Part shown: positions 56,724 through 57,043 of the stretch, in pieces
Layout of the letters: the number at the start of each line of letters is the position of its first letter
Position numbering within the stretch: position 1 is the first letter of the stretch
DNA from: a bacterium
GTDB lineage: Bacteria; Patescibacteriota; Minisyncoccia; 2-02-FULL-40-12; IGHO2-12-FULL-4
Assembly: GCA_030647955.1 (NCBI GenBank)
Contig: JAUSIQ010000004.1
Coordinates: 36,533-100,532, forward strand
DNA: 64,000 nucleotides
Direction: 5' to 3'
Program-made: the position numbers and the translations under genes
The notes under the pieces: generated by a model
The model's database searches: none
What the model was told of the DNA's origin: nothing
Seen by the model: the letters and a program-made list of their open reading frames with translations, nothing else

Positions 56724-57043
56724 AGATAAGGTACCCGTTATGCCCAACTCTTTACAAAAGGGAGGTGACCATGGGCGGTGCCCTGTAGGGCCCCGGACGG
56801 ATGTGCTCCCGGATGGCGAAAGCTGTCCGGGACACTCCGCGAGGGAGTCTGAAGGGGGACGGGTATGATAACCAAAAGAAAGGAGGTACCCAAGTGGGTG
56901 CGTTGTAAGGTGTTGATTATTGTTCTTGGAGGTCGGTAAGATGGTGTAAGTATTGCAGTAAAAATCGATTCGACTGACAAAACGGGGCGCGGAGTGTTGA
57001 TAGGCAATTTCGCCATCGACGCTCTAGCGCCCCCTCTTTTTTG
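56724..57043 (+). ncRNA. Candidate noncoding/leader transcript of about 320 nt, bounded by a consensus promoter and a terminator. It contains GC-rich element G1 and two SD-preceded mini-ORFs (MGGAL, MGAL)
   Basis: No ORF longer than 60 aa in any frame apart from ones overlapping the palindrome. GC-rich hairpins include CTCC-GCGA-GGAG with a GNRA loop. Terminator GGGGCGC...GCGCCCC plus a T-run at 56984-57043. Class unknown. Not confidently RNase P, tmRNA or SRP RNA. Confidence 0.4.

Follow-up and report, generated by a model that had tools for sequence, protein, structure and literature searches.

Tandem mini-ORFs of a few codons beside a TrmBL2-like regulator gene in Patescibacteria, and a possible role for their peptides

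What is the product of a bacterial transcript that runs from its own promoter to its own terminator and holds no open reading frame (ORF) of ordinary length? The question is raised by a locus of about 320 nucleotides (nt) within a 64,000-nt stretch of DNA from a member of the Patescibacteriota (GenBank assembly GCA_030647955.1, contig JAUSIQ010000004.1, positions 36,533 to 100,532 of the forward strand), which at its full length is referred to here as the window and supplies the coordinates used throughout. The locus lies downstream of a gene for a TrmB-like regulator, and the original prediction, made from the letters alone, had regarded it as a candidate non-coding RNA or attenuator that carries two mini-ORFs, MGGAL and MGAL. 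Comparison with related loci points instead to a conserved tandem pair of minigenes, whose last residue varies together with residues of the neighbouring regulator, and for whose peptides a role as ligands of that regulator may be considered.

In the window, the predicted transcript is a stand-alone unit that runs from promoter to terminator and contains two mini-ORFs, each led by a Shine-Dalgarno (SD) sequence. Its elements are the following.

56689-56717, + strand: promoter TTGACA-N17-TATAAT, sigma-70-type, consensus score 12/12, with a predicted start near 56724
56760-56767, + strand: Shine-Dalgarno 1, GGGAGGUG (GGAGG, 5 nt, ATG)
56771-56788, + strand: mini-ORF 1 (ORF1), ATG GGC GGT GCC CTG TAG, encoding MGGAL
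56789-56871, + strand: GC-rich hairpin element directly after the ORF1 stop, containing CUCC-GCGA-GGGAG
56872-56880, + strand: A-rich linker between the GC-rich element and Shine-Dalgarno 2
56881-56887, + strand: Shine-Dalgarno 2, AGGAGGU (AAGGAGG, 7 nt, GTG)
56894-56908, + strand: mini-ORF 2 (ORF2), GTG GGT GCG TTG TAA, encoding MGAL
56909-56983, + strand: variable 3' spacer of 75 nt, poorly conserved even relative to the closest related locus, L032
56984-57043, + strand: intrinsic terminator, a long GC-rich hairpin (56984-57033) followed by CUCUUUUUUG

This anatomy agrees with the original prediction, which had described a perfect promoter, about 320 nt of RNA ending in a hairpin and U-tract, a -35 box inside the terminator stem of the TrmB-like gene, two mini-ORFs at these positions and SD spacings, and a GC-rich element with a GCGA hairpin between them. 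The promoter is the sole perfect match found in a scan of both strands of the window, and its -35 hexamer falls within the 3' arm of the hairpin at 56668-56703 that terminates the regulator gene. The RNA is predicted to fold far more stably than its shuffled counterparts (z = -6.3). A further contention, that two correctly spaced mini-ORFs are unlikely to arise by chance, does not survive in its original form; the window considered by itself shows no enrichment, with 10 SD plus mini-ORF patterns observed against 19 ± 5 in mononucleotide shuffles. As such, the significance of the mini-ORFs derives from the comparison between loci and not from the statistics of a single sequence. In that comparison, the pattern SD-ATG-(1-4 codons)-TGG-stop is matched 30 times in the 18 kilobases (kb) downstream of TrmB homologues and not once in the other 375 kb of those loci, both strands included.

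The TrmB-like protein has hundreds of homologues in Patescibacteria, around which we compared loci from genomes (28) and from metagenomes (76), together with several single contigs. The minigene unit follows the TrmB-like gene on the same strand in about 30 of these Patescibacteria loci, and is present in every locus in which the regulator is at least about 55% identical and enough downstream DNA is available. An equivalent promoter is found in 27 of the 28 related loci, and the earlier claim of an independent unit is supported. In the related units, a consensus promoter is followed by an SD-led ORF1 that starts 16-72 nt after the predicted start, by a stable hairpin right behind the ORF1 stop and an A-rich linker (in nearly all loci), and, about 100-125 nt beyond ORF1, by an ORF2 likewise led by an SD; most of them also have a terminator, usually 200-350 nt from the start. 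The GGAGGUG of the first SD is kept in most homologous units, and the AAAGGAGG context of the second is likewise conserved. The hairpin behind ORF1 keeps its structure and not its sequence, with compensatory changes in L046, L049 and L053, while the spacer from ORF2 to the terminator ranges from about 15 to 400 nt among loci and is not conserved in sequence even between close relatives. Searches between loci with nhmmer and blastn found the RNA too diverged past the promoters, with weak matches to L006 and L002 only. A universal aptamer between the ORFs was considered and rejected, given that the motif CCCGG...CCGGG-ACACUCC occurs in a subset of loci only.

Equivalents of ORF1 (MGGW, MGW, MSW, MAF, MGL and others) are present in all loci of the + strand clade. 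The window and L032 share the pair MGGAL/MGAL, and L030 has a single ORF, MPPGAL. Elsewhere the pairs mostly end in Trp (MGGW/MSSW, MGGW/MGSW, MSW/MGLW, MGGGW/MGQW, MNW/MHW, MGW/MHW, MGW/MGGW, MGGGW/MTSW and MNWCW/MANW), and those that do not include MAF/MSF, MGL/MWGL, MGL/MGGL and MGLF/MGAF. Longer versions also exist, e.g. MTGGNW/MKNYINFAGGDVAW, and with some ORFs of 8-15 codons the full range across loci is 3-15 codons.

The manner in which these ORFs vary is that of coding sequence. In L032, whose regulator is 78% identical, both peptides are unchanged; ORF1 differs from that of the window by GGC>GGT and TAG>TGA, and ORF2, which there reads ATG GGT GCA CTT TGA, by GTG>ATG, GCG>GCA, TTG>CTT (two bases, still Leu) and TAA>TGA, all of the sense-codon changes being synonymous. 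The inter-ORF hairpin block and the 3' spacer are barely alignable between the same two loci, and the ends of the terminator stem are conserved. Synonymous Gly codons and insertions or deletions of whole codons separate L011 from L013, L037 from L041, L003 from L006 and L049 from L053. At the end of ORF1 the stop is UAG in 13 cases, UAA in 10 and UGA in 3, and a sense codon never takes its place. The mini-ORFs, which the original prediction had placed at the centre of the unit, are therefore not lost in relatives; they are kept in about 30 loci through synonymous changes and in-frame insertions and deletions, and this conservation speaks for the central role given to them. Since the conservation is of the coding type and does not extend to the 3' part of the RNA, the functional core would consist of the two SD-ORF modules and the hairpin between them, and we consider it very probable that the translated mini-ORFs are central to the function of the unit.

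A second regularity concerns the last residue. ORF1 and ORF2 end in the identical residue in 24 of 28 genomes, mostly as Trp/Trp, with Leu/Leu in the window, L032, L046, L049 and L111, and Phe/Phe in L014 and L053. On a neighbour-joining tree of the regulator the non-Trp states fall in at least four separate places, from which it follows that both ORFs have switched together repeatedly, with at least three joint switches to Leu/Leu and two to Phe/Phe. The case of L053 is instructive, in that, relative to L049, its Phe is reached in ORF1 via insertion of a TTT codon and in ORF2 via CTC>TTC, two different mutational routes in the alignment with one end state. Furthermore, the Leu codons are varied (CUG and UUG in the window, CUG and CUU in L032, CUA in L030, CUU and CUC elsewhere), which argues that the amino acid is selected and not the codon, the transfer RNA (tRNA) or an RNA pairing. 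Ahead of the final position stand mainly Gly, Ser, Ala, Thr or Asn. As read from the sequences, what selection sees is the last decoded amino acid, which is Trp in most lineages and Leu here.

Beyond this clade, where identity of the regulator falls below 50%, a comparable promoter-to-terminator unit is found that is convergent to the regulator gene and contains one or two mini-ORFs of the form MGxx (MGGH, MGTR, MGV, MGGF/MGGL, MGVL and others), such that adjacency of regulator and minigenes, in either orientation, extends to about 55 loci. In L015, L016, L021, L059, L061, L075 and L086, where the unit lies on the minus strand after the regulator, the SD of the mini-ORF is contained in a nearly perfect hairpin, CCUCC-loop-GGAGG, that immediately precedes ATG GGN. 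An SD enclosed in this way suggests that mini-ORF translation is regulated in these distant clades.

Given this adjacency, the regulator gene and the sequence between it and the minigenes deserve attention. The relevant features are these.

55894-56649, + strand: TrmB/TrmBL2-like regulator gene, 251 amino acids (Pfam PF01978, E = 1.8e-13)
56668-56703, + strand: terminator of the regulator gene, 3' of ORF 55894-56649, a hairpin of 16-17 base pairs (bp) with a T-run
56677-56694, + strand: candidate operator palindrome TGTCA-N8-TGACA, lying within the terminator hairpin, its right half being the -35 hexamer
57187-57227, + strand: second operator-like palindrome with promoter TTGACA-N17-TATACT, predicted to drive the next non-coding unit (unit 2)

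An AlphaFold (AF2) model of the regulator (predicted local distance difference test score, 85) combines a winged helix with a long helix and, at the C-terminus, a PLD/NucT-like domain, and with it Foldseek retrieves TrmBL2 (5bpd and 5box, E ~1e-13), TrmB (3qph) and NucT (6ehi). The protein thus has the N-terminal TrmB winged helix, the coiled coil and the PLD-like C-terminal domain that define TrmB/TrmBL2 membership. The arrangement TGTCA-N6-12-TTGACA occurs at two sites only in the window, against 0.08 expected, and in almost every related locus the palindrome recurs at the promoters of both the minigene unit (unit 1) and unit 2, sometimes also upstream of the regulator gene itself. As the copy at unit 2 has no T-run following it, the palindrome is not merely a terminator. 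Proteins of the TrmB family bind palindromes of a 6-N5-6 form, e.g. the glycolytic motif of the Thermococcales, and the neighbouring regulator is consequently the obvious candidate to bind TGTCA-N8-TGACA. From these shared sites, the minigene unit and unit 2 are probably co-regulated, and a regulatory linkage of the minigene unit to the regulator gene is probable. As to other neighbours that might offer a functional clue, such as an aminoacyl-tRNA synthetase, nothing is conserved save DUF218 in some loci.

The connection between regulator and minigenes extends to individual residues. All alignment columns of the regulator were scanned for association with Trp-type as opposed to other peptides, and Ala185 emerged in 18 of 21 Trp-type genomes and in none of the 11 others, with Phe150 in 19 of 21 and 1 of 11, respectively. 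Columns 149, 173, 209, 125 and 128 rank next, and the top-scoring columns are all within the C-terminal domain. In a prospective check, regulators with a residue other than Ala at 185 were picked from the list of homologues before their loci had been seen; four of the five informative loci (L110, L111, L113 and L115) proved to have non-Trp peptides, and the exception, L114, has kept Leu-Phe at 149-150 and has Trp/Trp. The regulator of L116 is in a mixed state (Val-Val at 149-150, with Ala185), and its ORF1 ends in Trp and its ORF2 in Leu. The evidence that the regulator and the C-terminus of the peptides co-evolve is, on these alignments, good but not conclusive.

A working model can be assembled from these observations. 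RNA polymerase would initiate near 56724, and ribosomes would load at the two near-perfect SD sites, produce fMet-Gly-Gly-Ala-Leu and fMet-Gly-Ala-Leu, and terminate; the GC hairpin behind ORF1 would insulate and stabilise the two cistrons, and the remainder of the RNA would be a spacer toward the intrinsic terminator, whose lack of conservation is to be expected if only the cistrons matter. The tiny peptides would themselves be the product and would serve as small ligands of the upstream-encoded TrmBL2-like regulator, acting via its C-terminal domain, and the regulator would in turn bind TGTCA-N8-TGACA over the -35 box of the minigene unit and of the RNA unit that follows, an arrangement that would close a feedback loop. 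What the comparison shows is the unit, its ORFs and their coding-type conservation, the linkage to the regulator gene, the shared palindrome and the co-variation of regulator and peptides; we infer that the RNA is made and translated, that the peptides bind the regulator and that the regulator binds the palindrome. Taken as a whole, the model of a two-minigene messenger RNA (mRNA) whose peptides are ligands of the adjacent regulator is put forward tentatively, as a serious possibility and not yet as a probability, and for the peptide-ligand circuit in itself our confidence is at that level or slightly below it.

A number of points weigh against this model. The final residues are discordant in the pairs Y/M, F/E, I/L and W/L, and the mini-ORFs of the distant convergent clade end in residues that are not concordant. 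The statistics of co-variation ignore shared ancestry, the five loci of the prospective check were chosen on column 185, and L017, L006, L035 and L114 are exceptions to the rule that relates regulator columns to peptides. The 251-residue regulator is TrmBL2-like and without the extra sugar-binding subdomain of TrmB, so that a ligand pocket in it is only putative. The palindrome at unit 1 doubles as the terminator of the upstream regulator gene, and a regulator that merely controlled the unit would equally explain the synteny. Peptides of 3-6 residues are, to our knowledge, far below any established bacterial peptide signal in length, and would be exposed to peptidases.

Among known systems, the proposed circuit would resemble in outline the Gram-positive pairs Rgg/SHP, ComR/XIP and PlcR/PapR, in which a tiny peptide gene also lies beside the gene of its regulator and in which peptide and regulator also co-vary. 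In these pairs, peptide and receptor co-diversify and the peptide promoter is under that same regulator; the peptides are made as precursors of 20-40 amino acids that are exported, processed and re-imported, and the receptors are of the TPR type. Unlike such RRNPP/Rgg pairs, the minigene ORFs have 3-15 codons and no signal sequence, and their neighbour is a winged-helix, TrmBL2-like protein. The mccA gene of microcin C likewise combines 7 codons with a strong SD, a stabilising hairpin and a functional C-terminal residue; it always ends in Asn, however, and needs the adenylating enzyme MccB encoded alongside, whereas the minigene peptides end in Leu, Trp or Phe and the neighbouring ORFs show no enzyme of the MccB type. 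For a leader peptide that acts in trans there is a precedent in peTrpL (PMC7298713).

In the main rival to this model, translation of the mini-ORFs would matter and the peptides would not. The last codon could act as a sentinel that reports on one charged tRNA family (Trp; here Leu), and low supply would leave ribosomes sitting at both sites of an abundant RNA, thereby throttling translation or altering the fate of the RNA. This would accommodate a selected last amino acid that is usually shared by both ORFs and is mostly Trp, the rarest amino acid, as well as the maximal SDs, the minimal ORFs and the consensus promoter; it needs neither a downstream gene nor a conserved 3' sequence, and prolonged pausing of ribosomes on a minigene's last sense codon is reported to make the mRNA more stable (PMC8708949). 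From a sentinel codon, however, one would not predict that residues of the neighbouring regulator co-vary with it, nor that Gly and other small residues are preferred before the last position; known leaders that sense amino acids have runs of codons and not one codon by the stop, and the discordant pairs Y/M and F/E, together with the distant clade, misfit a single sentinel amino acid. We regard both the sensor and its proposed consequence under low supply as unlikely. Translation could also be harmful in itself. The effects of the bar minigenes of phage lambda and of synthetic minigenes vary with the last sense codon and with the strength of the SD (PMC8708949), and those of lambda act by sequestering a single tRNA in cells where Pth is limiting and are not known to have a conserved cellular role; the present unit resembles them in its strong SDs (GGAGGUG, AGGAGG) and in ORFs of 5 and 4 codons, as do the units of relatives. 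Peptidyl-tRNA drop-off at the stop might accordingly sequester the tRNA of the last codon, giving a growth brake or abortive-infection device under control of the regulator. Minigene toxicity is indeed reported to hinge on a strong SD, on an ORF 2-6 codons long and on which sense codon comes last (PMC8708949), and two minigenes with the same final codon family would focus the effect. The unit differs from bar, however, as a conserved chromosomal feature that is linked to a regulator, and the ORFs of Leu lineages use codons of different tRNAs (CUG/UUG in the window, CUG/CUU in L032). Given furthermore that the stops of ORF1 are not biased toward UAA, that versions of 8-15 codons exist and that co-variation with the regulator is not predicted, this seems to us improbable.

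Leader-peptide regulation or attenuation, as proposed in the original prediction, would in its classical form have translation of the mini-ORFs decide the outcome at the terminator (56984-57043) and hence read-through into the next RNA unit. The mini-ORFs do precede a terminator and contain a conserved codon, and three-codon upstream ORFs (uORFs) can drive attenuation, as in the vmlR leader of B. subtilis, in which initiation at a three-codon uORF (MIN) matters and MIN, MDN and MDK all work (PMC9226507). The minigene ORFs are similar in that they are SD-led, 3-5 codons long, in or by hairpins and followed by an intrinsic terminator. In the window, a repeat of GGUGUUGAU after ORF2 and GAGUGUUGAU in the terminator arm would by eye permit alternative pairings; this trp-like pairing is not found in L032 and was dropped. 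The uORF of vmlR, however, belongs to the 5' leader of a resistance gene and is under little constraint as to what it encodes, whereas the minigene unit has two ORFs, no co-transcribed gene and a selected last residue that co-varies with the regulator; three-codon uORF sensors of attenuators elsewhere are always ahead of a gene (vmlR, PMC9226507). The key codons specify Trp, Leu or Phe in short ORFs, as in trpL, leuL and pheL, but the runs of regulatory codons well before the stop, the conserved alternative hairpins and the downstream biosynthetic genes of those leaders are all absent from the minigene unit. Its ORFs are conserved with a selected codon that is single and directly before the stop, such that stalling and termination would place the ribosome only 3 nt apart. 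The next unit, moreover, has its own conserved consensus promoter and operator, and the spacer between ORF2 and the terminator is neither conserved in sequence nor constant in length. Attenuation is thus not supported, and we think it still less probable than a toxic role. The unit might, finally, be a structured non-coding RNA in which the SD-like sites are 5' stabilisers that bind 30S subunits, or are binding sites for proteins or ribosomes, with the ORFs as incidental quick stops. The strong predicted structure, the presence everywhere of a hairpin behind ORF1 with some compensatory changes, and the CCCGG...CCGGG-ACACUCC motif common to a subset of loci would fit such an RNA; the hairpin varies in sequence, the 3' half is unconserved, no Rfam family matches, and incidental ORFs would not keep their peptides through synonymous changes or switch their last residues jointly, which makes this very improbable. 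The dual-function small RNA of the original prediction fares no better in its base-pairing aspect, as close relatives share no conserved seed outside the SDs, ORFs, hairpin and terminator stem.

Searches for known RNA families were in keeping with this assessment. At gathering score, Rfam gave no family for the minigene unit over the entire window, and at E <= 10 it gave nothing over 56500-59000, RNase P and T-box included; on 20 and on 10 related loci, likewise, no fitting family appeared for the minigene unit or its neighbours. This was the check that the original prediction had proposed, and its decision not to call RNase P in spite of a partial resemblance agrees with the absence of matches to the bacterial RNase P models in the window and, at E <= 10, in 56500-59000. 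A T-box leader was rejected on the same Rfam result, and codon-anticodon reading by one tRNA in the T-box manner is also disfavoured because the two Leu codons differ (CUG, UUG). ARAGORN identified neither a tRNA nor a tmRNA. A search of viral contigs for the MGGW pattern returned an ordinary gene start only, and the literature on Patescibacteria non-coding RNAs, on TrmB in Patescibacteria and on mini-ORFs yielded no description of the element.

The minigene unit is part of a larger region, the 2.4 kb from 56650 to about 59015 that follow the regulator gene, which is without ordinary genes in the window and in related loci and comprises the minigene RNA, the large structured RNA of unit 2, extremely conserved non-coding blocks and several small ORFs. 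Unit 2 (57187-57780, promoter at 57199-57227) has about 550 nt and no conserved ORF, and is predicted to be very strongly structured (z = -9.5). Conservation of the unit extends to L002, L030, L032 and many loci besides, its promoter region is highly conserved relative to L032, and its shared motifs are 5' (G)UAAGCUGAAAU, CUGGAAAGCNCGUUAAAUC and AACGGCUAACCGG. By eye, three motifs like those of RNase P are discernible (5' AAGCUGA; a P4 strand of the GGAAAG type; CGGCUAACCGGUC...GGUCAGUUU); Rfam models matched nothing in unit 2, also when its 573 nt were searched alone. Further downstream, a palindromic element of 79 nt (CCAYCAAAG...GCTTTATAAA...TTTATAAAGC...CTTTGRTGG) occurs twice, at 57783-57861 and 58571-58649, with 84% identity between the copies, and flanks a GC-rich segment of 0.7 kb. 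At the corresponding positions L030 has simpler hairpins with the same CCACCAAAG/TTTTGGTGG stems, from which we take these to be conserved stem-loops with an extra palindromic insert in the window. A non-coding block at 58425-58565 (GGTGTAAATGAGTCGGCGGTTGGGAATATTTCTCGATTTAACCCAACAGAAT...CGTCCTCGGGAGAGGTAAAATCTG) is about 95% identical to L030, with regulators only 74% identical, and on this comparison it is an element, RNA or DNA, under very strong constraint, to which Rfam gave no match.

Small ORFs are scattered through the same region. One of 32 amino acids (58304-58402), with a strong SD (MRPVVVGKRMYWEADGILFATRKAALEYLRGK), is conserved in L030 and partly in L023, and another of 129 amino acids, containing Cys and His (57945-58334), is conserved in L005 as 109 amino acids; an antisense ORF of 163 amino acids (57795-58286), picked by the gene caller in L001, is probably spurious. 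Further small genes are present in L008, L012, L014 and L017, about 1.3-1.7 kb after the regulator, and in L005, L006, L010, L017, L038 and L047; among these are an SD-led heptapeptide ORF (MSQDKFY, MSQDKFT or MANESFY) and two families of very basic proteins of 53-61 amino acids, e.g. ...LLRKAGFTWSGRPK... and MKMPKPIIIKREDLPKRRIPLPKK.... An ORF of 308 amino acids (58705-59631) has a weak NUDIX match, and its N-terminal third overlaps conserved non-coding sequence; the start of the NUDIX-like ORF is probably near 59018 (ATGGAATTTGAT...), beyond a hairpin at 58960-58992 that resembles a terminator. In L116 (2437-2478) the region is followed by a gene of the Ro60/TROVE family. Ro60 in other bacteria partners with Y-like RNAs encoded beside it, and by analogy this neighbour could bear on the identity of the structured RNAs. 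Elsewhere in the window, a near-consensus promoter, TTGACA-N18-TATTAT (11/12), lies between genes on the minus strand at 62437, near an inverted repeat of 26 bp (62498-62552).

Gene finders and most surveys of small proteins skip ORFs of 3-6 codons, and those known are regulatory uORFs or phage curiosities. Translated mini-ORFs as such are already known; a tandem pair that stands alone, is conserved and shows co-variation both in its terminal residue and in the neighbouring regulator is not known. The strongest form of the proposal is that these are the shortest conserved protein-coding genes yet noticed, of 3-6 codons, in tandem and on a transcript of their own, with products that are intracellular ligands co-evolving with a TrmBL2-like transcription factor in a new circuit widespread in Patescibacteria; from the sequences in hand we consider this possible and would not yet bet on it. 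If it is so, the circuit probably also controls the neighbouring island of structured RNAs and small basic proteins. A tandem pair of minigenes has been kept across a large part of the Patescibacteria. Should the peptides prove to be ligands, they would lower the size limit for functional genes and would open a way into gene regulation, the first of its kind, in organisms that are nearly unculturable; should the unit act by tRNA sensing or ribosome trapping, it would represent a new way of matching translation to supply in cells that are auxotrophic for amino acids and poor in ribosomes.

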